64,000 nt of DNA from Eledone cirrhosa. Lineage: Eukaryota. Under the pieces are notes generated by a model. It ran no database searches and had not been told where the DNA came from. It saw nothing but the letters and a program-made list of their open reading frames with translations. Below are positions 4,151 through 59,985 of the stretch, piece by piece. Position 1 is the stretch's first letter. Each line of letters opens with the position of its first letter. The stretch is from the NCBI GenBank assembly GCA_964016885.1, contig OZ024745.1:35588001-35652000 (forward strand). The letters are read 5' to 3'. The position numbers and the translations under genes are program-made.

Positions 4151-4441
4151 TTACACTCCACTCTTGCCTCATTTGCTCTTAAAAAGCACCACCCCATGAT
4201 AGTGTAATCCTTTGCATTTCCCGATTCTGACACATAGCCTTTCTACTTCAGTCAATATTTTACAAATCTTTCAAACTTTAATATTGGCTATAACACACAC
4301 GCTCTTTATTCTTCTTGGATATTTGATATTGGCTATAACAAACATGCATTTTATTCTATTTTATTTTATTTATTTATTTTTTTTTTTTGCCTCTTCATTT
4401 TATTGTATCTTATCTTATTATTTTATTATTTATTTAATGAA

Positions 4442-4628
4442 GGTGGATTGGTACTATTGGTAGAGAGTCGGACGCCATGCTTTCCAGCATAGTTACGTCC
4501 CTTTACAGTCTGAGTTCAAATCCCGCCGAGGTTAACTTTACCTTTCATCCTTACAGGGTCGATAAAATAAAGTACCAGTAATGTACTGGGTAATTGCTGG
4601 CCTTGTGCCAAAAGTAGAAACAATTATT
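4442..4628 (+). mobile_element. tRNA-derived SINE, family A
   Basis: B-box-like GAGTTCAAATCC, core CCTTTCATCCTTAC.GGGTCGATAAAATAAAGTACCAG, tail GAAACAATTATT; five more copies in the window. Confidence 0.9.
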
Positions 4629-5044
4629 TTATTATTTATTTTATTTTATTTTATTTTATCTTTTTATATTTTATTTCTTCATTTTACTTTATCTTATTTC
4701 ATTATCTGTTTGGCACCCCCACCACGTGAAAGGGTGGTAGGATTGATGTCAGACCACACACACTCATTCTTCTAAAGACAGCAGCAGCAGAACTAAGGCT
4801 GACCTGCCAGCTAACCCCCTAACACCAATAAACACAAGAGAGGAGGTCAGCTGTACCTAACAAAAACAACCACAACAGATTGTCTTGCCTCAGAAAAAAA
4901 TGTCTATAGACTTTTGACTGAGTAATGTTCTCACAACTGACCAATGGAGAAATAACAACCCAACCAGGAGCTGGACATATCGGAGTATTGACGGAGTAAA
5001 ACATTTTAAGAACATGTGTACCTATCTCTACCACACCAATTCGG

Positions 5045-9589: not shown

Positions 9590-12500
9590 TTAAATGTCGA
9601 AGTTAAACAGTTAGAATAACGGTGAAGTGGAGACTAGAATGTCATGTGACAGACTCTCACCCAGCAGCAGGGACCTGGCTGTCAACCAAATACTGCTGGT
9701 GTCGGAGGAAGAAGAAGAAGGAAAGGGACCAGAACCAACTGGACGAAAGAATTGAATAGAATTGTTATGCAATGTTACCTGAAGAGTAACCCCAAGGAGA
9801 AAGGCTATAGGAAACGGATGCATAACATCTGGAACGAGATTGGTCTATTTAAATTAGATGAACAAAAATTGGCCGGGCAGGCTCGGGTAATAAGAACTAA
9901 TGGGTGGATAAGCGAGCTGGAACTGGAGGAACTGAGCAGAGAGATTAGGTTGGAAATGGAGAGTGGAATATGCCAGGCAAACGAGCCATTGGGAAATGAA
10001 GGTGAAGAGGTTGAGAGAACGGAGGAACCATCCGAAGCAGACAATGATCTGAATGCTGAAATAAATAATACCTGGAACAAAGATACGGCCATTGAGGAGA
10101 TGAATCCTGACGGGCTAGGACAAGATTTGGTTGATATCCTAAACTTAGTGGTAGATGAATTGAACAATGATAGTGGGAAACCTATGAACCTAAGATTTGT
10201 AGACAGGAAAAAGTTAAAAGAAACAACAGCTAATGTAAACAAAGTCATCCCATACATTGAGGCGAGGAGCCTTCACCAGTGCAACAATATCCTCAAAGCA
10301 ACAGCAAATGCGGTGAGGAAATTACTTGGCATAAAAGCGAGAGGAAACAACAAACAAGAAAGATCAGAACCTTGGTGGAAGAAACGACTGAATGGTCAAA
10401 TCAGGGAAATGAGAAATGACATTGGAAAGCTTGAGTCCCTACTGAATGGGACACTAAAAAACATAGACACTAAAAATAGACTGGAAATAAAGTACAAAAC
10501 TAGGAGGAAAAAGCTAAATATAATCATAGAGGAACTGAAGCAACGCATTGTAGCAAAGAGTGCAAAGATTAGGCGATACGAGAGCAGAGTCAGTCAGTAT
10601 AGACAGAACCGCATGTTTGACAACAACCAGAAGATGCTGTTTGGACAGCTTGAAGGGAAAGAAAGAGGCAACGACTTGATCCCTGAGGCGGAACAAACTA
10701 AGACATTCTGGAGAGAAATATGGGAGCAGGATGTTAAACATAATGACCAGGCAGTGTGGATTGAGACAGTACAAAAGGAGATTAGTGAACAGGCACACCA
10801 ACAAACTGATTTGAAACTCTTAAGGGCCAGGCCAAAAAACTAACCAACTGGAAATCATCAGGCCCAGATGGTGTGCAGGGGTATTGGATTAAAAATATAA
10901 CATCTCTCCACCCGAAGCTGACAGCCATGTTCAATGACTGCTTGATGTCAGGTGAGGTACCTGAGTGGTTGACAAAGGGTACCACAGTTCTGGTAATGAA
11001 AGACCGAATCAAGGGTAATGATGTTACCAACTATAGACCTATCACATGTCTGTCCGTAATGTGGAAACTGTTGACAAGTATTATATCTGAGGAAATCTAC
11101 CATCACGTCCACGCAAACAACTTGTTACCGGACGAACAGAAAGGATGCCGAAAGAAGTCCCGTGGTACAAAGGACCAGTTACTTATTGATAAGATGGTAA
11201 TAAGGAATTGCAAGAGGAGACACACTGGTCTTGCCATGGGATGGATAAACTATAAAAAGGTATTTGACATGGTGCCTCATTCTTGGATCACCAAAAGCCT
11301 AGATATCTTCAAGGTGGCAGATAACATCAGACAGTTGTTGGGCAAAAGTATGAAGTCCTGGAAAACAGAGTTAACATTAGCTGGAGAATCCTTGGGAGGC
11401 GTGAAGATCAAGAGAGGTATCTTCCAGGGAGATAGTCTGTCCCCTCTGTTGTTTGTCCTTGCCCTGATGGCCCTGACCATTATATTGCGAAAAGTGAGAG
11501 CAGGATACAAGTTGGGAAAGGGAGAGCTTACCATCAATCACCTCCTCTTCATGAACGATATTAAGCTATTCGGGAAGAGTGAGAAGGAGTTGGATGTGCT
11601 CGTTGACACTGTCCGTATTTTCAGCAATGATATATGTATGCAATTTGGTATTAGTAAGTGTGGAGTCCTTGTGATGAAGAGGGGGTAAATTGAGCAGAAG
11701 CAACGGAATCCAGGTACCAACAGGTGAGATGATAAAGGAAATTGACACTGAAGAAGGATACACGTATTTGGGTGTTCTGGAGGCTGATGACATCAACATA
11801 AAAAATTGAAGGAATTGATAAGATTTGAATACATTCGGAGAATAAGGAGCGTATTAAAGTCACATCTGAACAGTAAGAATGCCATAAGTGCAGTAAATTC
11901 CCGAGCTGTGTGTATTATTAGATACAGTGCGGGAATTCTGAGATGGAATGTTGCTGAACAAAAAAGAAATGGATAGGAAGACTAGGAAGCTATTGACTAT
12001 CTACAACATGTTCCACAAGAGGAGTGATGTCGATAGACTCTACTTATCACATGATGTGATGGGCAGGGTGATCCACTGGCACCTATGCAAAGTAAACAAT
12101 TTACCACATTCTGAGAAGTGGTATGAGCATAAGCCAGAGTCGGTGATAGAAAACGATCAGGTGAAGGTGCTGTGGGATTTTAGGATACAGACGGACAAGA
12201 CACTGGAACACAATAGACCTGACCTGGTGGTTTTGGACAAGGATAAAAGATCGTGCCTGATTGTGGATGTGGCCTGCCCATTCGACACGAGAGTGCAAGA
12301 GAAGTAGAGGGAGAAAATTAACCGATACCAGGACTTAAAGTGGGAGATAACAAGGATTTGGAACTGCCATGAAGTCAGAGTGGTCCCGATTGTCATCGGC
12401 GCACTAGGTACTATCTCAACAAGTTTCCAGGGATGGTTAAAGAAAATTGGCCCCGCCACGCTTTTTGGAACGCTTCAAAAGGCATACTTGCTGGGAACAG

Positions 12501-20412: not shown

Positions 20413-20470
20413 ATACTATGATCATTTCAATGACCGGGTTCCGTATGAATCCGGTGATATCATCAGGTAT
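20413..20470 (-). ncRNA. Minimal type I hammerhead ribozyme
   Basis: Minus strand ATAC-CTGATGA-[tatcACCGG attc atacg gaac CCGGTcatt]-GAAA-TGATCA-TA-GTAT then AATAAA; palindromic stem III ATGATCAT; base of stem II mismatched. Confidence 0.75.
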
Positions 20471-22243
20471 TCGAAATATAACAAAGGAATATAACAGATA
20501 AAATCCATGGTGCTAAAGATCATAGACAAGAGGACGACCGACCATCTAGCATCTTCTACTTTAGTCGGTCGCTCTCAAGTGTTGGCTATTCGGTCTACTT
20601 ATAACCATCTGGTGAGGGGGCGAAAGCTTATAATATGCTACTACCTCCCAGTCAAAGAGAAAAAAGAAGAAAGATAGAAAGAAGAAAAGTCAGCGTTAAG
20701 GTCATGCTACAATAAGGCTAGAAATTGCCGCGAAAAATGTTTTCCAAAAAACCTATATCTTAACAGAGGCATATATAGTGGGCGTCTGTATGGTATAACA
20801 GATAATTGGAACGTTAAACTTATGTTTAGAGTTATAGGATGAAATAAAAAAAATTAAGAAATTAAAAAAAGTTTAAGGTTTGGGTTGCGAGATTTAGTTA
20901 AAGAATTTACAGAGAGTGTCTTTTATGAAAAAGTGTAAGTGTATTATAGAGATTCTCGATAAGTTTTCAGGGTGGGATATAGAGTAAAGATTAAGCCCTT
21001 GTTTAGCAGTCAATAACACGCGACGACTGCACTCTCCGGCCAGCCCTTCCTAACCACGTGTCAGCCGTTCCGAGTAATATCGTCTAGCGAAAGAGATGGA
21101 AATTAATTTTTCCGAGTACTCCAGGAATGTAAATGTCTTAGGCTTCGGGTGTGTTAGCGGAAAGTCTGCCATCGCCGTCAGGCCATCGCTATACCAAACG
21201 ATTACTATTAATTCACACAGGAGGGGAATTTGTTTACGTGCCAGTAGAGGGAGGCATGATACAGCTAATAGTTATGATTAGGCTTAGAATTTTTAGGTAC
21301 TATATGGCGGTCAAAACCGGTGGCGCGGCGGGCCCCGGGACGAAGCTATCCGCTCCGAGTAATTTCATTTACCGAAAGAAGAGGGAATTTATTTTTCCAA
21401 GCACTCAAGGAAGGCACCAGAGCTCCAGGCGAGCAGCCGGGAAAAGCGCCACATCAGTCGGATCATCGCGTGTAACCAACGATTGTTATATATTCACACC
21501 CGTGATGTGAGGTTGAAAGTGATAAAAACCCGATGAAATGCGCAAATAGACTATATTTAAGTCCCCAGTTAGTCCGGGTTATAAGTAGTGTGGTTCTTTG
21601 GTGGGGAGGGGGAAATATAAGGGTACAGAGAGTAATATTCTAGTATCGTGTGCTAATGAGTACAATGATAAGTACATAATGAGAGTAAAGCGATTAAAAA
21701 TCTAAATAAAAGGAACAATAAGCAAAAGTACATAAATAAATAAAAGCAGAATACAAAGATAAAAATACATTAATAAAAATACATTAATAAAGTAAAAATA
21801 CATAAATAAAACGCCGTCATAGCTAGGGTGGTGATGGAGTAAAACGGAAGTATATAAGAACATATCGGAGAAATCAAAACACAGGGGAAATACAATATAT
21901 ATCAAGTTGCAGTTAGATAATACATATAGATATAGAGGATGGACAAGATGGAATGGTATCAGGTGATACCTAGTGTATGTTCGAGTCTCAGAATTCAGTG
22001 TGAATCACAAAGCCCTGAAGTATAGGGTAGAGAATTCAGTCACTATAATACAGGTTATAGTATAAACCGTAGAATTTTGTCGCAGTCTGAATATTCCCGA
22101 CAGGGAAGCAGCATTAGACCAGGTGGGCGGTAGACAAAGAACAGAGTAGCCAAAATCCAAATGGTGAGTAGATCAGTCATTCCCATGCTAGTGATAGCTG
22201 TACACTGGAGTCAGTGCAGCTGTTCATTATTACATCTGAAAGC

Positions 22244-22347
22244 CGAGGTTGACTTTGCCTTTCATCCTTACGGGGTCGATAAAATAAAGTACCAGTAATG
22301 CACTGGTGATAATTGCTGGCCTTGTGCCTAAAGTAGAAACAATTATT
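22244..22347 (+). mobile_element. 5'-truncated SINE A with 18 bp TSD
   Basis: ATTATTACATCTGAAAGC at 22226-22243 and 22342-22359. Confidence 0.9.
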
Positions 22348-22522
22348 ACATCTGAAAGCGCTCAACATTTCTGGAGCATTATTTATTTAGGTTTGTTGGT
22401 TCACCACTGGATAGAATTGGTCATTCCGTATGGTCAATCTCGATGTAATATTATGGAGAGTACTCAACGTAATGCAGCTCACCCGTCTTCGTAAATCCAA
22501 CCCCTTATATATATATATATAT

Positions 22523-23492: not shown

Positions 23493-26400
23493 TTTCATTT
23501 ATTAACCACAAGGGCCGACATGTAGGAGACAATACAAAGGCAGGGACAATGGTGGTTTACAATAAGGTCGAGTAAAAGTGCACAGTGGCAAGACTAATTT
23601 AACAATGAAGATATAAAAATATAAAATAAACTATGCATAAATATAAAAAAATAAATTCCCCTATAGAGGATGGACGACCCAGGGGTGACTCAGGCACCCC
23701 ACCAATCCTGAACCACCCTGCGCTTCTAGGGCACCCAGGGAGAGCACTCCTCTCCTCAAGTTAGCTAGCTTATAGGCGCATGGTCAGAGTAGGCCCATTC
23801 ACATGGACCATTCTCGCCCCATTCATCCACCTCTTAGCAAATGTACTAGGGGGCAGCACTTCTCTCTCCACCCTCACCTTCCTTTCCAGGCGAAACTTGA
23901 AGAAGTTGATGAGGGATTGGCCGAAGAGAAAAGTGTCTCTCTTCAGTCCTTTTAATCTAGTCCACCATATAACCTCTTTGGCAACGGCCACCGGACAGAG
24001 GAAAATTGCCTGCTCTTCCTGACCTAAGGAAGGCGGCGGGTCAATCTTCCCTATGAACTCAGCCGATATCCGGATCCCTCCACACGTGACAGTAGCTGTT
24101 CGACATAATTCCACAAGTCAGTAATGCACGGACATTGGACAAGTGCGTGCAGAACGGTTTCGTCGCTCTGTGCGCATCTTGGGTAGGTCCGTCTGAGAGC
24201 ACTTCCGTGCCTGTAGAGTTTATCCCACTGGTCGCATTGCACGCTTGGTAGAGGGCAGTGAGTGATGGCAACATTCCAGGTGCCAGTCACCCAGTATCGG
24301 TCTCTTCTTGACCCAGGACTGCAGTTCAGTCAAAGAAACGAGCTGTGGAAAGGCCCGTCTGATAAACGGCGACCACACCTGTTCACCATTTAGGCAGAAT
24401 ATTGGAGATATCGGAGCCTCAGCGCATATCTGCGCATCATTAGCCACGGCATGCCCATCCCTCCGCGTAGAGGGTGCTGGCAGCAGATGGACCGCCTCAC
24501 CAACGGAACTTGTCCTTTCCACAACAATTTGAAGAGGAGCCGTTCCAACTTGCCGAGGGGCGGACGGGGGCAAGGCATGACGGTCAGGTGGTAGTAGATG
24601 ATAGACGCGATGTACTCGTTCGCCACCTCCGCGCGACCTTTCAGTGATAGCTTCCTCCCAGTCCATTTTTGGGTGAGACTGGCTACTCTGCTCGTTACAT
24701 TGTCCCAATCTTTCCACCTGGAGGTCTGGTCCGAATCAACTCCGAGCAACTTTACCGGTCCGTCCGTCCAGCGCCCCACGACGATGTTGGACAGCATAGG
24801 CTTGCCTCTTCAGATTCCGTGCTGCAAGCCCACCGACTTTTCCGGGTTAAGTTTGGCTCCTGTCAACCTTTCATATTCCTTCAATAAGGTGCCGACCACC
24901 TCGATTTCTGAGGTGTCCGACACCATCACGGTGATGTCGACACCGCCTTTGCACGTCCTGGTTCGAGTGGGATGCCCTGCAACAGCTCCAGCTTCCGCAG
25001 TAAAGGCTCGAGAGTCAATACGTACAGAAGGGAAGAGAGAAGGCACCCTTGACGGACCGATAGGGAGAGCCGAAATGGTTCCGAGAGGTGGCCATTAACC
25101 TTGACCTCCGAGCGTGTGCCGCTGTGCATTGCAGCAATCCGGCTTGTGAAGACAGGGCTGAAGTCAATTGCTTTGAGGACAAACTCCAGATACCGATGGT
25201 CGACTCTATCGAATGCTTTCGATTGATCTAAATTGATCAGTGCCCCACCGAAGCCAGGTTTACACCCTACCCTTTCTATGATGTATCGCATGAGATTGTC
25301 GTGTATGGACCTGGCTGGGATTGCACAAGTTTGCGCCTCCCCAACCAAATCCGCGACGACAAGCGCCAATCTCTTTGCTAACACCTTTGCCAACATCTTA
25401 AACTCTGTGTTGAGCAGAGTTATGGGCCTGAAGTTGTCTAATGTATCCCTCTTGTTCTCGTCTTTCCTTATCAGCGTCACCACTGCCCTACTCACAGAAC
25501 TGGGAGTACTCCCATTCTGCTGCCAGTTGCTGTAGAGTGTTTCTAGGAGATCGGAGAACAAGTCTGGCATATTTACGTAAAGCTCATAGGGCAGGCCATC
25601 CAAACCGGGTGACTTGCGCCTCATGCAGTCGACAAGGCCGTCCTGAATTTCGGCTGAAATAATCGCCCTTTCGCAGCGCTCAACGTCGACCCTCGATATG
25701 CGCGGCAAGCCGTCAAGGTGGGGACTGAGATCCGCTACTCTCTCTGACTCGCCACTCTCCCCGAACAACCGGGCAAAGTGCTGGCGAAAGGCCTCACACA
25801 TCCGCTTGGAATCGTTTATCTCGTGTCCGTCTCGGTCCGCCAAAGACCGAATTGTGGTTTTATTACCACGTTGCGCCTCCGCCACGCGGGCCCATCGAAC
25901 AGCTTTGGTTCCCTCGTTTCTCAACGCACGCGCCTTAGCTCTGACAATGCAACCTTCGTGTTTCACATAGAAGAAATGGTCTAATGCCATTCTCGCCGCT
26001 AGCACGTCAGTTGTAATGCCACTACAAATAGCATCGTCTAACTTATCTACCAGCTCCCCCGCTTTCTATTTTTCTCTAACGCTAGTTCTTTGCTGAACTC
26101 TATCGAAGTTACTCTAATCTCTCTTTTAAGAGCCCCCCCCCCCCACCATCTGTTGTTGATGATCCCCCTGTCAACCTTTGCTTAACTAAATTGTTGACTC
26201 GGTCCCTGTAAGCCTTACGTGCCGGAAATGACATGTTCAGCTTCCAGTAATCCGGTCCCAACCTACGCGTTTTATCTAGGTCGACTAAACAGATCACAAA
26301 TTTGTGATCTGAATAGGCGACCGTTTTAAAAATGGGCAGCGTACACTATTTCTATCTATTTTCCTAATAAAGATCCTGTCTATATACGATCCAGATGACC

Positions 26401-27390
26401 CTATGCGGTTGGTCCACGTCCACACTGGCGCATTGGGGAAATCTAGTCGATACCTGTCAGACAGTTGGAACTGGCTGATTAGGTGTTTGAGGCTTTTGCA
26501 CCCCCGCTCCTATCAGCTACGCTCACACAATCCCAGCGTACGTCTAAGATGCCGTTCCAGTCCCCCGCTAACAGTAGAGAGCGAAACGTACCCAGAAAGG
26601 TTTCCAGGCGCCTAAAGAAGTCTGGTCGTCCGATCCCTGTAGGGGCGTAGACGACCAGCACTCTAAAGGCACCATCTTCGCTACTGCTCACATCCAGGAC
26701 CACCAACTTACCGTCCGGGTCCCGGAAAATCGACCTTACCTCGAGATCCAGACCTTTTCTAAACAGCACTGCCACCCCACCTCCCATTCCCGGCCTACTA
26801 ACAGATGCGAAGATCTGATAGTCGTCGAAAATGGGGGCTAGTGCGCGTGTGTCAGAAATCCTGGTCTCGCTGACGGCAATCACATCCATTTCCAGAGACC
26901 TGAGGTCGTTGAGCAGGTGGCCCTACTTCTAGCGTGACCCCAGGCCGCGAACATTTAAACTTCCTACTCTTAATATGGCCGTGTTGGCAAGCTAAAAGAG
27001 AGAGGGAAGGTTTACCTACCTCCCGGGGTCTTGTGAAGGTCGGGTGGTTCGACCTCCATGGTTGGTGGGGTTTCTTTTGGGAACCCTTTTAAAAGTCTTG
27101 ATATGGGTTTCACATTCGGGGTCCCCACGTGTTGAGGAAAACTCTCTCGAATTTCTTTGTAGGAATTGAGGGACATTCGCACCAGAAGCAAATCTTCTGG
27201 CTCGCAAAAGGTGTTCAGTTCAAAGATCTCCCCCTCTGTTTGGATGTCCTCACTTCGTGCTAAGAGGGCCATCAATTTATCGTTGGCCCTTCTGACAAGC
27301 ACGAAGTTTTTAATGTTTTGTTGGTGTGGTTTTATTTGTTTTCGTTTTGGTGACTGTGGCGGTGATGGTTTTGGTGGTGTTGTTTCGGGA
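23491..27390 (-). mobile_element. 5'-truncated, disrupted Tx1-type (L1 clade) LINE: ORF1 C-terminus plus ORF2 (APE, RT, zinc finger)
   Basis: APE: GSLNVRGL, AVSET, VYAP, AGDWN, WKLN. RT: KSPGLDGLPYE, FRPITLLN, NLDQSKAFDRVDH, SVRQGCLLS. C-terminal ETVLHALVQC. ORF2 start appears mutated to ACG near 26981. Ends AATAAATGAAATC-(ATT)n. Confidence 0.92.
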
Positions 27391-27417
27391 TAATAATAAT
27401 AATAAAAATAATAATAA

Positions 27418-27758
27418 TGCCCATTCGACACGAGAGTGCAAAAGAAGGAGAGGGAGAAAATTAACCGATACCAGGACTTAAAGTGGGAGGTAAAAAGGAT
27501 TTGGAACTGCCATGAAGTCAAAGTGGTCCCGATTGTCATAGGCGCACTAGGTACTATCTCAAAAAGTTTCCAGGGATGGTTAAAGAAAATTGGCCCCTTC
27601 ACGCTTTTTGGAACGCTTCAAAAGGCATGCTTGCTGGGAACAGGAAGAACTCTCCGATACGTCCTGAATATCTGACGCTGCAGGTAGTGGCTTGATATTC
27701 ATTTCAACAAACTTTCCAGTTAACTAACATCAATGACTGAGACTCAAGGAATAACAAC

Positions 27759-29850: not shown

Positions 29851-29955
29851 GGACTGTAGCCCTTGATAAGTTCAGCTAGATTCCCGCTGTTTGAATACCG
29901 GCGCTTTAGTTCGGATCTAGCTGTCGAAACGGCCGGAGATCAGCCGTAAGGGTCC
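29851..29955 (+). ncRNA. Extended type I hammerhead ribozyme, U3-A8 core
   Basis: GGAC-tgtag-CCC-TTGATAA-[GttCAGCTAGATTC...GGATCTAGCTGtC]-GAAA-CGGC cggagatca GCCG-TA-AGG-GTCC; bulged stem I with one mismatch next to the cleavage site. Confidence 0.7.
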
Positions 29956-30044
29956 TGAATATTTTCATATTACCCACTCAACTACCCAAATAACGAGTAC
30001 TCTGGTGGGTTATGGTCCACCTGGTATTTTACCTCACATTATCT

Positions 30045-34741: not shown

Positions 34742-34917
34742 TTGGCCACCTAGTTCGGGTACCTACCAATATACCTTGTGTATCTATATCATGGAGGTGA
34801 TTCGGATTGCTGTGGTCTTTTGGGATTGTACCCCTAAATCCTTTTAACTTTTAATTTTATTATATCATTATATTATTTTATTATCTTATTATCTTTTATT
34901 ATTTTAGTATTTCATAA

Positions 34918-35111
34918 AGCGGTGGATTGGCAGTATCGGTAGAGGATCGTACTCCATGCTTTGAAGTATAGAGTTACCTCCCTGTATGATCTGAGTTCAA
35001 ATCCCGCCGAGGTTAACTTTGCCTTTCATCCTTACGGGGTCGATAAAATAAAGTACCAGTAATGCCCTGGATAAATTGCTGGCCTTGTGCCAAAAAGTAG
35101 AAACAATTATT
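34918..35111 (+). mobile_element. SINE A with 18 bp TSD
   Basis: ATTATTTTAGTATTTCAT at 34898-34915 and 35106-35123. Confidence 0.92.
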
Positions 35112-35534
35112 TTAGTATTTCATTATTTTATTTTATCTTTATTTCTATATATTTTTTTATTTTATTATTATTTTTAATTATATTTTATTAATTTTTTCAT
35201 TATATTTTATTAATTTTTACCTTATTTTATTTTATTTTACTTTATTATCTTTACTACTTTTATTTTTATATTTATTATTAATTTATTATAATTTATATCA
35301 TGTCTGTATTGTTTGTATTTTTTGTAATTTTTATGTATTTTTTCATGCTTTTGCATTGTTTTGTGTGCCATCTATTATATTTTCATCTTGTTGAATACGC
35401 TTTGCCTTGGCAGTGATGCTTAACAACCCCAGCATACACCTCTTCTTTCGCCATCTCCAATCTCCCTTTCTTTATTCTGATTGTTCGTGTGACTAGGTTA
35501 TTGTGGAGCTTATACTCAACACTGTATTTTTTAG

Positions 35535-35579
35535 GCTCTGAGGATACCTGCCAAGAGGTGAGGATGAAACATTGTAAGT
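35535..35579 (+). ncRNA. Degenerate hammerhead-like motif
   Basis: GCT-CTGAGGA-[TACCT gccaag AGGTG aggat]-GAAA-CATTG-TA-AGT then AATAAA; stem II is out of register. Confidence 0.45.
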
Positions 35580-35643: not shown

Positions 35644-37240
35644 ATTAGAAAGTGAGTTTTTTTTTACAAAATGAAAAATAACCGAGGTGTCCTACACGAG
35701 TGAAAGTATAAGGAAAAAAGATGAAATCGAAAATGCAACTGGAGTCTTATTTAAAAAAAAATATATATATTTATTTGGTTCGCAGTTCTTCTGCTTTTCA
35801 AAAGTAGAGTTGAGATGGAGGGTCTGTGGTTTTTCTCACATCTGGTTGGTCTCTGAATGTTACTTGTTTTATATGGAAAAAAGTGGCTCGAAATGCCAGG
35901 TTTTTAGAGAAGTAATTTGATTGGTTGGTCAATAATTATAATAAATTTCGCGCCAGTTCGCGTTACAAAGTTCTTCAAACGGGGGGGGGGGGGGGGGGGG
36001 CGGCTCAGGTTGTTTTTTTCATGTATGAGTGTTTGAATTTCTTTTTACTTAAAAAAAGGGGCTCACGAAGCCTTTTTATTTTAATAAACGTAATTTGATT
36101 GGTTATAAATGAAATTATGGCCGTCACGTGAACAAGTTTTCATTAAATTTCGCGCCCTTATTTGGAAATCTATTCTGTATTAATTTTAGAGAATTTTATG
36201 ACAAGCAAAAGATAATGGTCAAGAGAAATGGGATGGGAGAATTGTTCTGGTTCAGTGAATATGGTTAGTTCGCTGGGGTGTCAGAATTCAGATTTTCTAT
36301 TGAAATAAAGAAAGTAAAGATATGCATGTTTATTTGTGTGCATGTGTGAGTGTGTGTGTATGTGTGTGTGTTGTATGTGTGTGTTTGAATTTCTTTTTAC
36401 TTAAAAAAAGGGGCTCACGAAGCCTTTTTATTTTAATAAACGCAATTTGATTGGTTATAAATGAAATTAATGCCGTCACGTGAACAAGTTTTCATTAAAT
36501 TCGCGCCCTTATTTGGAAATCTATTCTGTAGCAATTTTAGAGAATTTTATGACAAGCAAAAGATAATGGTCAAGAGAAATGCGATGGGAGAATTGTTCTG
36601 GTTCAGTGAATATGGTTAGTTCGCTGGGGTGTAAGAATTCAGATTTTCTATTGAAATAAAGAAAGTAAAGATATGTATGTTTATTTGTGTGCTTGTGTGT
36701 TGTGTGTGTGTGTTTGAATTTCTTTTTACTTAAAAAAGGGGCCCACACAGGCTTTTCTTTAATAAACGTAATTTGATTGGTTATAAATGAAATTATGGCT
36801 GTCACGTGAACAAGTTTTCATTAAATTCGCGCCCTTATTTGGAAATCTATTCTGTAGCCTTTTTAGAGAATTTTATGACAAGCCAAAGATAATGGTCAAG
36901 AAAAATGGGATGGGAGAATTGTTCTGGTTAGTTCGCTGGGGTGTCAGAATTCAGATTTTCTATTAAAATAAAGAAAGTAAAGATATGTATGTTTATTTGT
37001 GTACTTGTGTGTGTGTGTGTGTGTGACCAACCAATCAAATTACTTCTCTAAAAACCTGGCATTTCGAACCACTTTTTTCCATATAAAACAAGTAACATTC
37101 AGAGACCACAGACCTTCCATCTCAACTCTACTTTTGAAAAGCAGAAGAACTGCGAAACCGGTAAAGGAACCAAATAAATATATATATATTTTTAAAAATA
37201 AGACTCCAGTTGAATTTTCGATTTCATCTTTTTTTCTTTA
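35644..37240 (-). mobile_element. Non-autonomous PLE terminal-repeat element (family F) with internal tandem units and an inverted 5' arm
   Basis: Reverse complement of 54530-55135; three tandem units start at 36031, 36383 and 36712; plus-strand arm 37024-37240; (TA)n on both sides. Confidence 0.85.
37131..37166 (+). ncRNA. Minimal hammerhead ribozyme, U3-A8 core (family F)
   Basis: CTT-TTGAAAA-GCAG aagaa CTGC-GAAA-CCGG-TA-AAG. Confidence 0.75.
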
Positions 37241-38511: not shown

Positions 38512-39397
38512 ACAGGGAGAAGCAGACGATTATTAGGAAGAAAAATATATTTGTTTCCCTTTTTATTTATTTCTCTCTTTTTTTCTGGGTTAGAAAATTA
38601 TTAAAACGAAATATTTTACTTTGTGTGAAGTGTTAAGGTATTAGTTGATTTATTTATTAATTAACAATGGCATTTATTTATCCATTTATATATTTCATAA
38701 TTGTCTATTACCGGCTTCAGCATTTTTATGCATTATCAAATGATAGTGATATGTATTGGTGTAGAATGGTGGTGTTGCACATGTTAAAGAAATGGTGCAG
38801 AAAGAATAATGTTATTTACAAACAAGGTTTATGAAGTGAAAAGAAAAAAAGAAAAAAGAAAAAAAAGCGGGGGGAGGGGGGAGGGGTAATGTGGAGCATA
38901 AAAGGTCAATGTGAAAGAAAAAAATAATGTTATTTACAGGCATAGTTCTTGAAGTTAAGCAGATCAAAATGTGTTAATATAGCAAGGGTGCTTAGTTGAT
39001 CCATGATGGAGGCAAATGGTAGACTGGGGCTTGATATGATTTCCCTTTTTAGAGAGTTAATATGCAAGGGGAGGCAATTCATGCTGGATGATATTTAATT
39101 TATTTAAGAAAAAGTATTAGGTAGGGTGTGAGGGAGGTAACTCTTATAAATGTTTGATTGTTTGTTCCTGTTTTAGTTTGGTCCGAAGTTTAGTGCATTA
39201 AGTAGAGGTTGGAATTTATTAATGAAACATGTTTCCTTATTGGTACGATGGATGAAAGTAGCGTTGTCTATGAATTTGTAAATGATTTCCTGGATGAGTT
39301 CCTGGATGTCGACTTTTAGGGCACGTTGGAATCCATTGTTGATTAGGGTTGGTGGGTAGTTTCTGCTGATAAGTGTGGTTTTTAATTCTTCTAGTCT
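38508..39397 (-). mobile_element. Internally deleted Penelope-like element
   Basis: 39397-39173 reads RLEELKTTLISRNYPPTLINNGFQRALKVDIQEL fused in frame to IYKF..HRTNKETCFINKFQPLLN..*, homologous to two separated parts of the 53063-54007 ORF; (TA)n flanks. Confidence 0.85.
38705..38746 (-). ncRNA. Decayed hammerhead, U3-A8 core
   Basis: Minus strand AT-TTGATAA-tGCAT aaaa ATGCt-GAAG-CCGG-TA-AT; GAAA has mutated to GAAG; lies in the PLE 3' region. Confidence 0.6.
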
Positions 39398-39627: not shown

Positions 39628-39670
39628 AAATTACCGGTTTCGATGTATTAAAATTCATCTTGTCAAATTC
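39628..39670 (-). ncRNA. Minimal hammerhead ribozyme, U3-A8 core
   Basis: Minus strand GAAT-TTGACAA-GATG aattttaata CATC-GAAA-CCGG-TA-ATTT; core and all stems intact. Confidence 0.8.
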
Positions 39671-41520: not shown

Positions 41521-41540
41521 AACGGGAAAAAAAACGAATA

Positions 41541-41728
41541 TAATTGTTTCTACTTTAGGCACAAGGCCAGCAATTACCCAGTACATTACTGGTACTTTAT
41601 TTTATCGACCCCGTAAGGATGAAAGGCAAAGTTAACCTCGACGGGATTTGAACTCAGACCGTAAAGGGACGTAATTATGCTGGAAAGCATGGCGTCCGAC
41701 TCTCTACCGATACTGCCAATCCACCGCC
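41541..41728 (-). mobile_element. SINE A with TSD
   Basis: Reverse complement of 4442-4628; ACGAATATAAT at 41534-41544 and 41739-41749. Confidence 0.92.
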
Positions 41729-42184
41729 CTTTGAAAATACGAATATAATACGTCATTAATAGGAGCGGTGAAAAACAATTACGCGCAAAGACAGAACCAC
41801 ATTTATGGTATAAAAGAGGTCGTAGACTAATGTTCCCTTAGGTGGTGCATAGAGACGTTCTCTGGCGATGAACGAAAAAAACGAAGATAATACGTCATAT
41901 GTGGAGCGTGGAGAACAATAGCACGCAAAGACAAAAGCACGTAAATGGTATAGCAGAAGTCGTAGACTAAATTCTAACTAGGAGACCGAATGAATCTCCG
42001 CTACGGAGTTAAGAACAAAGTAAATAAATACAATACAGAAGTAATAGAAATAAATAAATACATACACGCAAACAGAAACGTACATACGCAAGCATACGCA
42101 AAAACTTACCATAGGTAAACAAAACCACGCACATATAAATATGTGTGTGTGTGTAAGCGTGTATACAAATAAATAAATAATTAT

Positions 42185-52850: not shown

Positions 52851-53063
52851 AATCGATCGACTTTCGTCAAATCGGACCGAGCAAACAATATTTCCGTTGG
52901 TCTTTCCAATTGCTAATACTAACTATCGGTCGCAACTCCAGGTAGAAGGAGCAACGTGAAATAAAGTGTCTTGCTCAAGGACATAACGCATCGCCCGGTC
53001 TGGGAATCGAACTGACAACCTCACGATTGTGAATCCAGTTCTCTAACCAATCACCCACACGCC
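52851..53063 (-). mobile_element. tRNA-derived SINE, family B
   Basis: Minus strand GGCGTGTGGGTGATTGGTTAGAG..GTTCGATTCCC..GTCCTTGAGCAAGACACTT. Confidence 0.8.
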
Positions 53064-54007
53064 AAGATCAACTCCCATTTCTGGACATCTTAATCACAAA
53101 AAAAGACACAAATATTGAAACTGACATACACTACAAAGCAACAGATTCCAAACAATATCTGCTATTCACCTCCAACCATCCAAAGCACACGAAGACGAAC
53201 ATTCCTTTTAACCTAGCAAGAAGAATTTGCACAATTGTCTCCAATTATGAAACGCGAAATAAAAGACTTCAAGAATTAAAGGAAATTCTACTTGAGAGAG
53301 AGTACCCACTATTACTAATAAATAATGGAATAGAAAGGGCTAAAGCAATAGGCATTGATGAATTACGGAAACAGAAACAAATTCAAGGTACGTCCAATAT
53401 TCTATCATATATCTCAACACACAACCCAAGAAATGCGGAAGCTTACAACACTATTCACAATAACATCCCACTACTAAAACAAAACCCAAGAATAAAAAAA
53501 GCCCTTGAAACACACAAAATAATCAAAAGCAAAAGACAACCAAAATCACTGAAAACATTACTCACCAATGCCAAATTACCTACCACAAACCCACAACCAA
53601 GTATCAAAAAATGTGGTCGCTCTAATTGTGGAACCTGCACTCACCTCATTGAAGGCAACACGTATACATTTAAATCAGGACAAAATTTTACTGTAAAAAA
53701 TCACTTCACTTGCTCATCAAAAAATCTAATTTATGCCATTAAATGTAAAGGATGCAATGAAGATTATATAGGACAAACTAAACTCACACTCAGAAACAGA
53801 ATGACAGTTCATCGCCAACAATTACGAGATCCAACCACGAGACAGATACCACTAAGTGCACATCTAGACATTTGCGCAAGTAATAAGACACCCAAATTCC
53901 AAGTCTTCCCATTTTACCTTTGCGCTAACAATACAACAGAACAAATGCGAATAAATAAGGAAAATATGTTTATTCAAAAATATAGACCAACATTAAATAA
54001 GGTTTAA
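53063..54007 (+). CDS. 5'-truncated Penelope-like (Neptune-type) ORF: RT C-terminus/thumb, Cys linker and GIY-YIG endonuclease
   Basis: Uninterrupted frame: LPFLDILI, TDIHYKATDSKQYL..SNHP, CGRSNCGTC, TCSSKNLIYAIKCKGCNEDYIGQT, RNRMTVH, KENMFIQKYRPTLN. Confidence 0.93.
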   Translation, partial: QDQLPFLDILITKKDTNIETDIHYKATDSKQYLLFTSNHPKHTKTNIPFNLARRICTIVSNYETRNKRLQELKEILLEREYPLLLINNGIERAKAIGIDELRKQKQIQGTSNILSYISTHNPRNAEAYNTIHNNIPLLKQNPRIKKALETHKIIKSKRQPKSLKTLLTNAKLPTTNPQPSIKKCGRSNCGTCTHLIEGNTYTFKSGQNFTVKNHFTCSSKNLIYAIKCKGCNEDYIGQTKLTLRNRMTVHRQQLRDPTTRQIPLSAHLDICASNKTPKFQVFPFYLCANNTTEQMRINKENMFIQKYRPTLNKV

Positions 54008-55130
54008 TATACATTATGTCAACACCACAATATGACATACACACACACACATAACACCTTCTACTTTAGAAAATAAAAACCCGAACTAAATAAACCTTAA
54101 CATACGTTTGCACTGGCAATACAACAGCAAACACGAAAAAGTCAGGAAAATATGTTAATTCAAAAATATTCCTACTAAAGGAATCATTTTCCTACACACA
54201 CACAATATATATATATATATATATTCTCTTCATCTTAACATGCTAACCATACTCCCACACACATAACACCCATACACACACATAACAACCCCCACACCTA
54301 CAACACCCTCCCCATTTCTACTAATAGAACCACTTTCCTACACACATATATATATACACACACACAAAATATATATTCTCTCCATCTAACATACTCGCAC
54401 ACACACACATAACACCCATATACACACACACACAACTCCCTCCCCCATCTCTACTAATAGAATCATTTTCCAATACACACATACACACACACACACACAT
54501 ATACAGACACACAAGCACACAAATAAACACATATCTTCAGTCTCAATAGAAAATCTGAACTCTGACACCTGAACTCTGACAGCTGGCCATATTCACTGAA
54601 CCAGAACATTTCTCCCAATCCCTTTTCCCTTGACCACTATCTCTCCATTGTCATAACATTCACTATAAAGACTACAGAATAGTTTTCCAAATAAGGCGCA
54701 AAAATGTAATGAAAACTTGTTCACGTGACAGCCAAATTTCATTTATAACCAACCCAAAAAAAGCCTTCGTGAGCCTCATTTTTTCAAGTAAAAAGAAATT
54801 CAAACACTCATATATGAAAAAACAACCTGTGACAACCCCCCCCTCTCTTATTTGAAGAACTATTGTAACGCGAACTGGCGCGAAATTTATTATAATTATT
54901 GACAAACCAATCAAATTACTTCTCGAAAAACCTGGCTTTCGAGCCACTTTTTCCATATAAAACAAGTAACATTTAGAGACCAACCAGATGTGAGAAAAAC
55001 CACAGACCCTCCATCTCAACTCACCTTTTGAAAAGCAGAAGAACTGCGAAACCGGTAAAGGAACCAAATAAATATATATATTTAAAAAAAAAATAAGACT
55101 TCAGTTGCATTTTCGATTTCATCTTTTTTT

Positions 55131-55211: not shown

Positions 55212-55322
55212 CATATATATATATGTATATATATATATTTATATATACATATATATATTAAAATAACAGATTAAAGTTTAAGCCCTCTTTGGATTTTAGT
55301 CTTCATATTTATTATTATTATT

Positions 55323-55512
55323 GGTGCATTGGCAGTATCGGTAGAGCGTCGGACGCCATGTTTGACGCATAGAGTTACGGCCCTTGACATTCTGAGTTCA
55401 AATCCAGTCGAGGTTAACTTTGCCTTTCATCCTTACGGGGTCGATAAAATAAAGTACCAGTAATGCACTGGTGTAATTGCTGGCCTTGAGCCAAAATTAG
55501 AAACAATTATTA
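55323..55512 (+). mobile_element. SINE A inside (ATT)n
   Basis: Same consensus as 4442-4628. Confidence 0.9.
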
Positions 55513-55514
55513 TC

Positions 55515-55605
<91 letters not shown>

Positions 55606-55615
55606 ATATATATAT

Positions 55616-55802
55616 GGGAAAAAGTATGACCCCGACGGCAGAGCTCAAGCCGTTTCGACGGCTATTTCTGGAGTCCAGAAATAGCCGTTGAGCTCTGGCG
55701 TCGGGGTCATAATTTTTCCCATTTCCCACTCTACTACCCTAAGTATTGAGTACTCTGGTGCGTTATGGTCCATTTGGTTCCTTACCACAATTCCTTTGTT
55801 AT
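55616..55802 (+). mobile_element. 5'-truncated HHR-family repeat with a fold-back 5' end
   Basis: Hairpin centred on 55673; left arm on the minus strand reads GAAA-CGGC ttgagctct GCCG-TC-GGGG; family of 31692-31833. Confidence 0.8.
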
Positions 55803-55940
55803 ATATATATAAGTGTGTGTGTGTGTTATGATACCTCGTTCATACTGATAAATTCTATTTTTCGTGTAAAGTGTTAGTACATTTCTGTGTAAAACAGAGG
55901 TACATATTTCGTTATATTTTTATTACAAATTCAGTTAAAT

Positions 55941-56845: not shown

Positions 56846-59452
56846 ATCAAATACATCGCCGAAGGTAAATTTTCCAGTAAATCATTTCATGGTGACGACT
56901 ATTATTCGAATCTAACCAACTTATGAGACTTCGTGCTTATGTCGACACCCTTGCCCAAAAGAAAAACATGACAATAGTAGTAATTTCTGCTCTTTGTACT
57001 ACCCCGAATACATTGTATACATCACGCATATTTCTAGTATTAGAAAGTAAAAGGAAAAGACTCTCTGAAAAATAAAAATAAAATAAAATAAAATTGATAA
57101 TTAACATGAAATGTAGGAAATAAAATGTGCCGAAATTACAAAATGAAATAATCATTTTGCATACGTATATAATTGCTAATAATTTTCTGATAACGAAATA
57201 TATAACAACTTTGTCAAAGTGAAGAATGGCGTTTACCTTGAAAATACCATTTCAACATCTACTGTTAATTTATTGCACTCACTTGCCTAAAGCATGAGTA
57301 AACCGGAATATAAGAACAGAAAAACCATATATGACATCGTGATTCAACGTTGAAAATTCATTTACGAATTATCTGGTAAACATCAATGAAGATTTGAAAA
57401 TGTTCTTCCTACTTGTCAAATGTTACATATTCGTTGAATGAAGAATGAAGAAATGGTGTTATATATAAATTATATTTTCCTTTTCATGTTATACTGACAA
57501 TGTCTTTATACAAGTTCTTCAATTTTAAGACAACTACGATATCTACTGCCACCTATACTTGTTTTGTCTTATCTATCTTAATAAAAGTCTACATTTTAAT
57601 GATATCAATGCCACAGAAAGGCGTTAATAGTTGACATGTAGAAGACACTAGCCACGAGTGGTGATAAAACTGACGAATACAAAATTAGAGGAAACATAGT
57701 AAGCTGAATACCCTCTCGTTTTCAAACAAAAGCAACGGAGCAAAACAAAACAACAAAAAAAACCCATCTCATACGAGAAAGTTTATTACATGATTTAGTA
57801 TGTGTCATTTTGGGTGAAAGTATAGAAACCTGGAAGTTAATATGTATGGTAGAAACTTATTTTCATGTTATATAAAATAATGTACGAACATGAAATCATT
57901 AGAGATATGAAAAGTCGACATTTATTATAGTAATCGTACACACATATATTGTATGTGTATGTGTATTTGCTCGCGCATCTTTGTGTACATGAATTTGCGG
58001 CGTGCATGTGTAGTTGGATACATGACTTGAGTGATTTTATGAAATCTAGAAAAACTATTTCAAACTTCTGCGTAAGTAAAAATCAATAATTGCAAAGAAA
58101 GAATCTTTATTCTTACGTGAGATGTCATAAGAATTTACGAATATATTTGCATTATATTAAGATTACTTACACATACACCATGTCACATATTTAGTGGAAA
58201 GGTGTATTTGACATAGTCGGCTGCAATACTTAGTTTTTCCAGTTCAGTAAAATTGAACAGCAAAATCAACATCGTTAAGATTTGAACTCAAGGGGTAATG
58301 GAGGCAAGTAAATAGATTATATATGAAACCCATCGCTTAACTAATTCTGACTATACAACAGTCTTAATACTACATTATTTTAGGACGTAATGAGACACAG
58401 ACAAATATTTCATGTATGAAATTCACCGCTCAGCCAATCCTAATTATATACCAGTCTTAATGTTATGTTATTTTATGTATAGAGTGATATCTTCTTAAAC
58501 CAACGCAATTAAGACGGATATTGGATAAATCGGATAAAAGTTGAATTAAAAGAGTAAAAGCCACTTTTAAGTATCAGTTCTGTAGTGGCATTACTTTTGT
58601 GTATCATTGTTGTAGAGGTGTATACTCTGCGCATGTTAGTTTAGCGCTGTACACCGATCAAAAGTAGTACAGTCATGATAAATATTTAAGTCTATCATAT
58701 TTAAGTTTAGCATGTTTAGTGCGAGTAATTGTAGGTGAGACGATATGTCTCGGACATTTGAAAACTGGTGGAAAGCATCTCTTTCTAGGTTTGAACACAT
58801 ATAACTTCTTCCACAGAACGAAGGGGAGAGAAAAGTGAAAAAGAGAGATATCAGAAGAACCGTTTCAACTACTTTTCTGATAATTTATTCTTCGATTCTA
58901 TTTCCAATATAGTATATGAGTAAACCTATATCTTGTAACATCGGTTAACTCGGCCAATTAGCTAAAACGGACATACATCCATCTATTCAACTATATAGAT
59001 AGTTAAATTGTATTTTGTTAAAAAATCCGAAAAAAAACCCAATTACAGTATGATATTTAATACAAGTAAAAAGGTTTTGTTGGTTCCATTTATGGAATGT
59101 GAAACCGCGTTGTAAAAAGACTGAAGTGTCATCCACCATTTCGTCTATATTAAGGACAAAAAAGAAGAAATTAACATTATATATTTGGGAGAGAATTGTT
59201 TCCTAATCATTAAAGAACTAAACTTATGACTGTAAAAATAAGAATCTTTTTAACGCAAACTTTATGTATCGAACAGGATGTAGAATAAAGAAATGGTCAG
59301 GCTAGATGGAATTACGCCCATCCTTTTGGCAGTGTAATAATTTAAATGATAAAACACAACAACGTATACTGGAATATTTAAGGTGGGTTTAATACAGATA
59401 TAACTGCAGTTTATTATATAAGAAATGAATATATGAATATATATATAAATAA

Positions 59453-59659: not shown

Positions 59660-59697
59660 CCTTTACCGGTTTCGCAGTTCTTCTGCTTTTCAAAAGG
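59660..59697 (-). ncRNA. Minimal hammerhead ribozyme, U3-A8 core (family F)
   Basis: Reverse complement of 55024-55061. Confidence 0.8.
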
Positions 59698-59772: not shown

Positions 59773-59810
59773 CCTTTTGAAAAGCAGAAGAACTGCGAAA
59801 CCGGTAAAGG
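59773..59810 (+). ncRNA. Minimal hammerhead ribozyme, U3-A8 core (family F)
   Basis: Identical to 55024-55061. Confidence 0.8.
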
Positions 59811-59942
59811 AACCAAATAAATATATATATTTTTAAAAAAAATAAGACTTCAGTTGCATTTTCGATTTCATATCTTTTTCTTTATACTTCCACTCGTGTA
59901 GGACACCTCGGTTATTTTTCATTTTGTAAAAAAAAACCTCAC

Positions 59943-59985
<43 letters not shown>

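Follow-up and report, generated by a model that had tools for sequence, protein, structure and literature searches.

A hammerhead-shaped motif with a U3-A8 core, lying downstream of a Penelope-like open reading frame in Eledone cirrhosa, raises the question of how such motifs are distributed in this genome and what they do for the retroelements that carry them. Family D, one of four motif families of Penelope-like elements (PLEs) distinguished here, carries a C3·A8 series that can serve as a natural test of the part played by cleavage in mobility. U3-A8 cores in PLE hammerheads have been in print since 2014, and the motif at 55024 is a new member of that class. The window, here the whole 64-kb stretch of DNA analysed, is 35% GC, rich in (TA)n and part of a host genome of 3.0 Gb.

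Hammerhead motifs in the window

All seven U3-A8 hammerhead motifs are confirmed in the window and fall into families A, B, C and D. Every motif named in the preliminary description is found at its position, that of family C spanning 38707-38741 on the minus strand; the motif at 59660 also lies on the minus strand, which had not been stated. The features are as follows.

29851..29957, plus strand: family D (Hydra clade) hammerhead, U3-A8 core 29863-29869, 56-nt helix II arm, 5-bp helix III with near-palindromic loop
31646..31835, minus strand: 5'-truncated family D end without the first core strand
35644..36389, minus strand: another tailed family A end, missing both helix III and the cut site and absent from the preliminary description
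37131..37166, plus strand: family A hammerhead of an older subfamily, 3-bp helix I, within an inverted arrangement
38707..38741, minus strand: family C hammerhead, UUGAUAA, U·U then GCAU/AUGC, 2-bp helix I, private GAAG
39180..39397, minus strand: remnant of a Neptune-type ORF with an internal deletion, located upstream of the family C motif (56% over 34 aa by tblastn; 3' end approximate)
39628..39670, minus strand: family B hammerhead, UUGACAA, GAUG/CAUC
53060..54007, plus strand: family A ORF2, 5'-truncated, with RT thumb, CX4CX2C linker and GIY-YIG endonuclease (Pfam GIY-YIG, E 2.8e-07), sharing 97-99% identity with 122 further matches in the genome
54008..55137, plus strand: family A 3' UTR / pseudo-LTR that stops 80 nt beyond the predicted cut site and adjoins a (TA)n tract
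55024..55061, plus strand: family A type I hammerhead, 4-bp helix I, U3-A8 core 55028-55034, 4-bp helix II, GAAA, palindromic ACCGGU helix III, predicted cut after A55057
55616..55810, no strand assigned: palindromic stub of family D that breaks off within helix II and consists of right halves only (minus strand 55628-55656, plus strand 55684-55708)
59660..59697, minus strand: family A hammerhead, left arm of a head-to-head inverted insertion
59773..59950, plus strand: family A hammerhead (59773-59810) followed by the 3' end and a tail of 69 nt, forming the right arm of this inverted insertion

The motifs carry the core Y3-UGA-N-R8-A ... GAAA ... UH in type I order, the exception being a GAAG at 38718. 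This is a private mutation, the relatives of family C having GAAA; at 29948-29949, the GUA and the mismatched first helix-I pair of the family D motif are likewise private, its relatives carrying GUC-GGGG. A strict U3-A8 pattern yields five matches in the window versus none in 100 dinucleotide shuffles, and 20,511 matches genome-wide versus 19 for a reversed-pattern control, which bears out the claimed expansion in this genome; N7 is a base other than A in 2,974 of the genome-wide matches. Folding energy shows no excess over shuffles in any of five folds (z -0.77 to +0.74), and the support therefore comes from pattern excess and conservation, not from thermodynamics. The 148 Rfam matches at E<=5 include no hammerhead family, and a CUGANGA-only search misses the motifs, as had been predicted. 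As judged from the DNA, the window features are thus confirmed as genuine type I hammerhead-shaped motifs at the ends of PLEs. All seven are U3-A8, so covariation of positions 3 and 8 cannot be shown from the window alone.

The window additionally contains canonical C3-G8 hammerhead-like motifs at 35538-35576 (plus), 57670-57701 (plus) and 20432-20466 (minus), the last belonging to a small ACCGGU/GUC family with two extra bases before C3. Two decayed non-LTR retrotransposons, at 9650-12307 (plus) and 24220-27617 (minus), match Pfam RVT_1 and are unrelated to the hammerheads. Copies of a SINE-like repeat, presumably of cephalopod identity, are abundant (4397-4705, 22241-22348, 34870-35203, 41530-41750 and 55289-55523).

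The ACCGGU families A, B and C

The window copy of family A corresponds to the last 2.1 kb, at the 3' side, of a PLE; truncation falls within the RT thumb, and the zinc-finger linker and GIY-YIG domain are retained. Whole units measure 4,679 and 4,689 nt between successive motifs (two of 12 long regions fetched), such that a full-length unit carries a motif at each end. Within the unit, ORF1 (409 codons) overlaps ORF2 (775 codons) by 91 nt, and the motif is positioned ~1,050 nt past the ORF2 stop and ~200 nt ahead of the ORF1 ATG. The 123 scored genomic matches to ORF2 are 97-100% identical, with the 775-codon frame kept in 27 of them; family A is young and intact. As in endonuclease-bearing PLEs, an RT with a C-terminal GIY-YIG, pseudo-LTRs, a tail and inverted truncated copies are all present. 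Pfam places GIY-YIG above its cutoff and RVT_1 just under its own (E 1.3e-06), and assigns ORF1 to no family at significance. Copies terminate in (TA)n either 79 or 148 nt beyond the predicted cut, thereby defining a 69-nt tail, and head-to-head pairs are common. Both termini lie 3' of the predicted cut site (789 and 858 in locus L081), and copies with a whole motif span that site, which means that the template was uncut or rejoined there.

At the ORF1/ORF2 overlap of these Neptune-type elements, a U UUU UUA heptamer occurs in a -1 arrangement (L081:2011-2020; L219:2401; also L216, L289, L290 and L294); it is conserved in family A, in two ORF2 copies at family C loci and in relatives from other sources that are 41-46% identical. 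Programmed -1 frameshifting at the overlap is likely on these sequences. A recurring family A-like subfamily with a weakened helix II (GCAU/CUGU) and a further U3-A8 family with an apparent 5-bp GAUUG/CAAUC helix II were also observed.

Families B and C are related to A. Relatives of family B link to a Neptune-type ORF2 that is ~50% identical to that of family A, similarity being found in two of 19 oriented loci (20 fetched), once in cis and once as an inverted copy. Related ORF2 sequence precedes the family C motif at several of 30 loci, as it does in the window. A protein tree of 39 rows places A, B and C in one clade (support 100/99) together with six unlabelled relatives. The CX2-5CxxC linker and DKG motif are found in the family A ORF2 translation and in family C fragments, B being connected by tblastn similarity only; the Neptune-type label for the three families rests on these motifs, the protein tree having used unnamed relatives only. 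Some relatives of the PLE protein are labelled as bacterial symbiont or MAG proteins, which are probably host contamination. The preliminary description had attached only one family to a Penelope-like ORF; in fact all four link to RT/endonuclease ORFs of PLEs and occur as truncated or inverted ends, for which reason an identity as non-LTR retrozymes, which consist of short non-coding tandem units that each hold a hammerhead, was rejected.

The four nearest motif-bearing outgroup loci of the A/B/C clade are C3-G8, one of them with the same ACCGGU helix. A descriptor search of 83 related loci from other sources finds the motif in 29, comprising 25 C3-G8 matches, two of which fall inside the ORF match and may be chance, and four U3-A8 matches. 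Together, the single clade and its C3-G8 outgroups make it likely that A, B and C share one derived U3-A8 origin. Over 27 labelled rows, the protein tree requires at least five changes of core type, so that the U3-A8 variant recurs among PLEs.

Stem pairing differs between the helices. Helix II differs in sequence between A, B and C and remains paired, as had been claimed of stems I and II; helix I measures 3-5 bp in A and D (3-4 bp in 52 of 58 A motifs), 2 bp in 11 of 14 B motifs and 2 bp or fewer in 26 of 27 C motifs. With only 1-2 bp, helix I of B and C may not be strong enough to support catalysis. Family C mostly carries a U·U at 10.1/11.1, and a U·U beside the core is also present in many Hydra-clade rows of File S2 in PMC8557442. 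In folding predictions, the ACCGGU strand has no monomer fold and self-pairs at -10.3 kcal/mol; the palindromic helix III is thus unstable as a monomer in A, B and C, whereas that of family D is stable.

Within the ACCGGU group, genome-wide counts are 20,511 U3-A8, 146 C3·A8, 133 U3·G8 and 105 C3-G8 cores, the last from a pattern that allows any H17. Most of the listed C3-G8 matches form a separate family ending in GUC, and the mixed cores (0.7% each) look, from their sequences, like scattered point mutations. A reading of 20,511 versus 105 as dominance of U3-A8 in this genome was rejected: a generic canonical C3-G8 pattern gives 100,169 matches versus 6,918 for its control, or ~93,000 above control. 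Canonical motifs therefore far outnumber U3-A8 ones.

These families closely resemble systems already described. Like the U3-A8 hammerheads of Schistosoma mansoni Cercyon (Cervera and De la Pena 2014, PMC4209133), they are type I motifs in pseudo-LTRs with a palindromic helix III, a short helix I and a U3-A8 core, and occur as dispersed single motifs and close opposite-strand pairs. They differ in copy number (>20,000 here versus ~1,300 matches in Schistosoma) and, for A and B, in having a 4-bp helix II with no extra base after A9; the Lottia and Crassostrea rows of that alignment are C3-G8. As in Neptune-type PLEs (Craig et al. 2021, PMC8557442), the RT is followed by GIY-YIG, the CX2-5CxxC linker, DKG and a tail, with inverted 5'-truncated copies and (TA)n targets. 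The separate ~400-codon ORF1 with its 91-nt ORF2 overlap at U UUU UUA and the 69-nt tail, against a usual 30-40 nt, set the present elements apart; the Fig. 1 legend of PMC8557442 mentions frameshifted ORF1s, the clade not being apparent from it. Poseidon of Anolis carolinensis (Frangieh et al. 2024, PMC11167929) likewise begins RT at either of two points downstream of its hammerhead, which set the limits of a tail, and has AT-rich targets; its core is C3-G8, overlaps the ORF start and comes with in vitro data, whereas the motif here lies ~200 nt before ORF1 and is known from sequence. Natural C3-G8 to U3-A8 covariants from all domains (Perreault et al. 2011, PMC3088659) show the same compensatory pair and are active in vitro. 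Further related literature comprises PMC6765202, PMC3884650, PMC7151607, PMC3846280, PMC5408684 and bioRxiv 10.64898/2026.07.22.740005. A literature search conducted largely outside subscription journals gave nothing, among the papers listed, on octopus Penelope hammerheads of this kind.

Family D and its C3·A8 cores

Relatives of family D read ACCCC-UUGANAA, followed by a long helix II, a 5-bp helix III with a GAGCUC loop and then GUC-GGGGU. Their translations contain RWR, HSDKT, a CNC-x5-C linker, CNLC and CKH, with no CCHH, corresponding to the Hydra-clade motifs given in PMC8557442 (RWK, DKT, CxCX5C linker, CxxC and CxH, no CCHH). Pfam returned no significant family for two family D ORF pieces. 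A Naiad identity, considered from the RT thumb motif, was rejected because the endonuclease is C-terminal and bears Hydra motifs. Since family D lacks the ACCGGU helix, it represents a separate U3-A8 origin, and on sequence grounds U3-A8 is likely to have arisen at least twice in this genome, in the A/B/C clade and in D. Instead of the four unrelated families first described, there are three related Neptune-type families and one separate Hydra-clade family, and the proposed U3-A8/ACCGGU lineage stands for A, B and C, with their C3-G8 nearest motif-bearing outgroups, and excludes D.

Family D shares with Hydra-clade PLEs of PMC8557442 the RW[K/R] and DKT motifs, the CxCX5C linker, a C-terminal GIY-YIG with CxxC and CxH and without CCHH, insertion into (TA)n and a hammerhead near the 3' end. 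It is unlike the Hydra rows there in its 55-56-nt helix II arm and 9-nt near-palindromic loop III. Moreover, CUGANGA and short helices are the rule in File S2, in each of its 26 Hydra rows from 25 families, whereas D has U3-A8 or C3·A8. Predicted energies of its helix III are -6.8 to -7.8 kcal/mol alone and -29 to -32 as a duplex, and a compensatory A-U/G-C change at one helix II pair distinguishes subfamilies D1 and D2.

Genome-wide, right halves of family D number 49,562 and left halves 3,935, with controls of 0 for both; the two counts come from different patterns, and the left-half pattern, closing as it does with a fixed start of helix II, captures no more than a portion of the family. 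The first core strand is seen upstream in six of 30 right-half loci. Most insertions amount to short palindromic stubs that break off within helix II and lie in (TA)n (window 55616-55810; loci L151-L180), which suggests that reverse transcription often stops or inverts at helix II.

The first 100 listed left halves, all on contig C1, comprise 64 U3-A8, 32 C3·A8 and four U3·G8 cores and no C3-G8 core, so that canonical CUGANGA is absent among them; the 32 C3·A8 cores correspond to 25 insertion sites if inverted pairs are counted once. The preliminary description held that positions 3 and 8 change together. This is true between lineages and fails within D.

A tree of 52 of 76 recovered copies, each with at least 330 alignable bases and with positions 3 and 8 masked, forms a ladder in which nine older U3 copies are followed by 22 C3 copies along the backbone and then by 20 U3 copies nested inside, among which sits one lone C3 copy. 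Trees from short alignments were noisy, and results were taken from the longer ones. The tree forces three core changes versus a mean of 17 after shuffling, and holding the U3 copies together (the lone C3 copy included, 10 older copies as outgroup) is rejected with p-AU 8e-52. The root of D2 is unsure owing to a long outgroup branch, and the number of reversions to U3, the base found again in the youngest subfamilies, is accordingly one or two.

ORFs of nearly full length lie in cis with the C3 motifs. When C3 majorities are compared with young U3 ones (three and four copies), the endonuclease shows dN 0.012 and dS 0.127 over 208 codons, a dN/dS of ~0.1, and low dN/dS together with ORFs in cis implies that the C3·A8 masters coded for a working protein. 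The C3·A8 core persisted in this ORF-constrained lineage through ~0.26 upstream changes per site, a rate possibly inflated by alignment error. Across eight subfamily majorities, change in the motif is confined to position 3, N7, loop bases and the distal arm: none of 13 core and closing bases and none of 30 proximal stem bases differs, against 110 variable columns among the 238 upstream. Within the C3 stretch itself, P for invariance is 0.10 with the nine unpaired core bases, 0.036 with 13 bases and 1.6e-05 with 43 bases, stems among them; these values are rough, given the small groups, and the nine single-stranded bases alone are not significant. In predicted folds, the core-unpaired structure lies 1.6-3.3 kcal/mol above the MFE in four of four C3 copies versus 0-1.2 in five U3 copies, such that C3 appears to favour a competing pairing.

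A C3·A8 mismatch carries a large cost to hammerhead cleavage. As a tentative interpretation, to which we give less than an even chance, an autonomous Hydra-clade lineage may have broken its 3-8 pair to C3·A8, transposed in that state through successive subfamilies to make up about a third of core-bearing young copies, with the other catalytic bases and stems intact, and then restored U3. PLE hammerheads would on this interpretation be tuned-down switches or protein-dependent folds, with mobility not selecting for cleavage rate, or C·A would be a functional third core pair. If true, the broken and then restored pair would be genomic evidence for one or other of these conclusions. Family D in any case provides a dated allelic series, U3-A8 to C3·A8 to U3-A8 in one master lineage, that is directly assayable. 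The covariants given in the accessible part of PMC3088659 include no C3·A8 mismatch, and our literature search, again largely outside subscription journals, retrieved no report of a C3·A8 phase in a PLE hammerhead, which does not establish absence from print.

Cleavage, structure, splicing or decay

From the observed location, copy numbers, ORF linkage, clades and termini we infer a mechanism that seems to us somewhat more probable than not to be right: the motifs would be slow, conditional self-cleaving RNAs that trim tandem precursor transcripts and are not required for each insertion. In families A, B and C, helix III is a bare palindrome unable to fold alone, so that two motifs, whether the 5' and 3' copies of one 4.7-kb unit or those of two RNAs, would have to pair before a cut after GUA; dimers are needed, and in vitro activity is low, for the PLE motifs of PMC4209133. 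Cleavage would probably be helped by the element's own protein, as reported for the Anolis PLE (PMC11167929). A cut at the upstream copy would leave an RNA 5' end ~170 nt before ORF1. In family D, the stable helix III predicts a monomer fold, and the palindromic loop would also permit a dimer. Since inserted copies run across the cut and stop 79 or 148 nt beyond it, the template copied to DNA must have been uncut (or rejoined) at its 3' motif; since the template must stay uncut, selection would favour a weak ribozyme. Such selection would explain the tolerated U3-A8 pair, the 1-2-bp helices and the long C3·A8 stretch of D, with the other core bases fixed. Cleavage is predicted after position 17; for the Anolis element, PMC11167929 found no RNA ends at the cut site.

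Persistence of C3·A8 in an ORF-constrained lineage and the competing C3 fold count against a slow ribozyme, as do folding energies no better than those of shuffles, the 1-2-bp helix I of B and C and, within the C3 stretch, the non-significant invariance of the nine single-stranded core bases. A different explanation, which we consider possible and rather doubtful, would have the fold maintained for its structure or as a protein-binding signal, serving RT recruitment, template positioning, inversion or self-priming, with catalysis expendable or a mere vestige in these families. That the C3·A8 masters of D spread with intact stems while their endonuclease was under purifying selection suits such a role, as do the lack of the first core strand in most D copies, given the two half counts from their different patterns, and the near absence of helix I in B and C. 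Catalytic mutants of the Anolis PLE moreover left in vitro insertion unchanged (PMC11167929). A purely structural signal does not readily account, however, for unpaired catalytic bases, and not stems alone, being fixed across four families in two clades, with N7 the one freely varying base, as catalysis would predict. Nor does it account for the return of U3 in the youngest D subfamilies, or for the lack of any evident C3·A8 or U3·G8 subfamily in the ACCGGU families. Slow, conditional cleavage remains the preferred reading, with the suggestion that fast cutting is possibly unneeded for jumping, as one family spread through a long mismatched phase.

Alternatively, the G|GUAA at the cut site of A, B and C could be the 5' splice donor of a ~97-nt 5'-UTR intron, in which case splicing and cleavage would be mutually exclusive and GUA kept for splicing. 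The CCG|GTAA is donor-like and is followed by a pyrimidine tract and TAG in A and in the window copy of B, and other PLEs have 5'-UTR introns (PMC4209133, PMC8557442). We nevertheless regard this as very improbable: no genomic copy has the spliced junction, the three matches being other deletions, and the joint is also missing from four runs of contigs whose type is unrecorded; moreover, GUC takes the place of GUA in D and in a C3-G8 family, and GUA is an ordinary NUH triplet. Decayed relics, converted from C3-G8 to U3-A8 by two transitions in an AT-rich genome with nothing maintaining them, are less credible still. Both changes are indeed transitions toward AT (window GC 35%) and both intermediates occur in D, but family A is intact and of recent origin, the flanking UTR has diverged around an unchanging core and stems, a constraint that largely refutes decay, and ~93,000 canonical motifs persist in the same genome without such drift.

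The separate origins of U3-A8 in two PLE clades of one genome, and its recurrence in a small sample of PLEs, mean that CUGANGA-only descriptors and Rfam undercount these motifs by tens of thousands; U3-A8 motifs are nonetheless a minority beside the canonical ones. Among the canonical hammerhead-like motifs are tandem arrays of 310-311-bp units in inverted blocks (C1:1239857-1244284 and 5388706-5392670), which look like non-LTR retrozymes.
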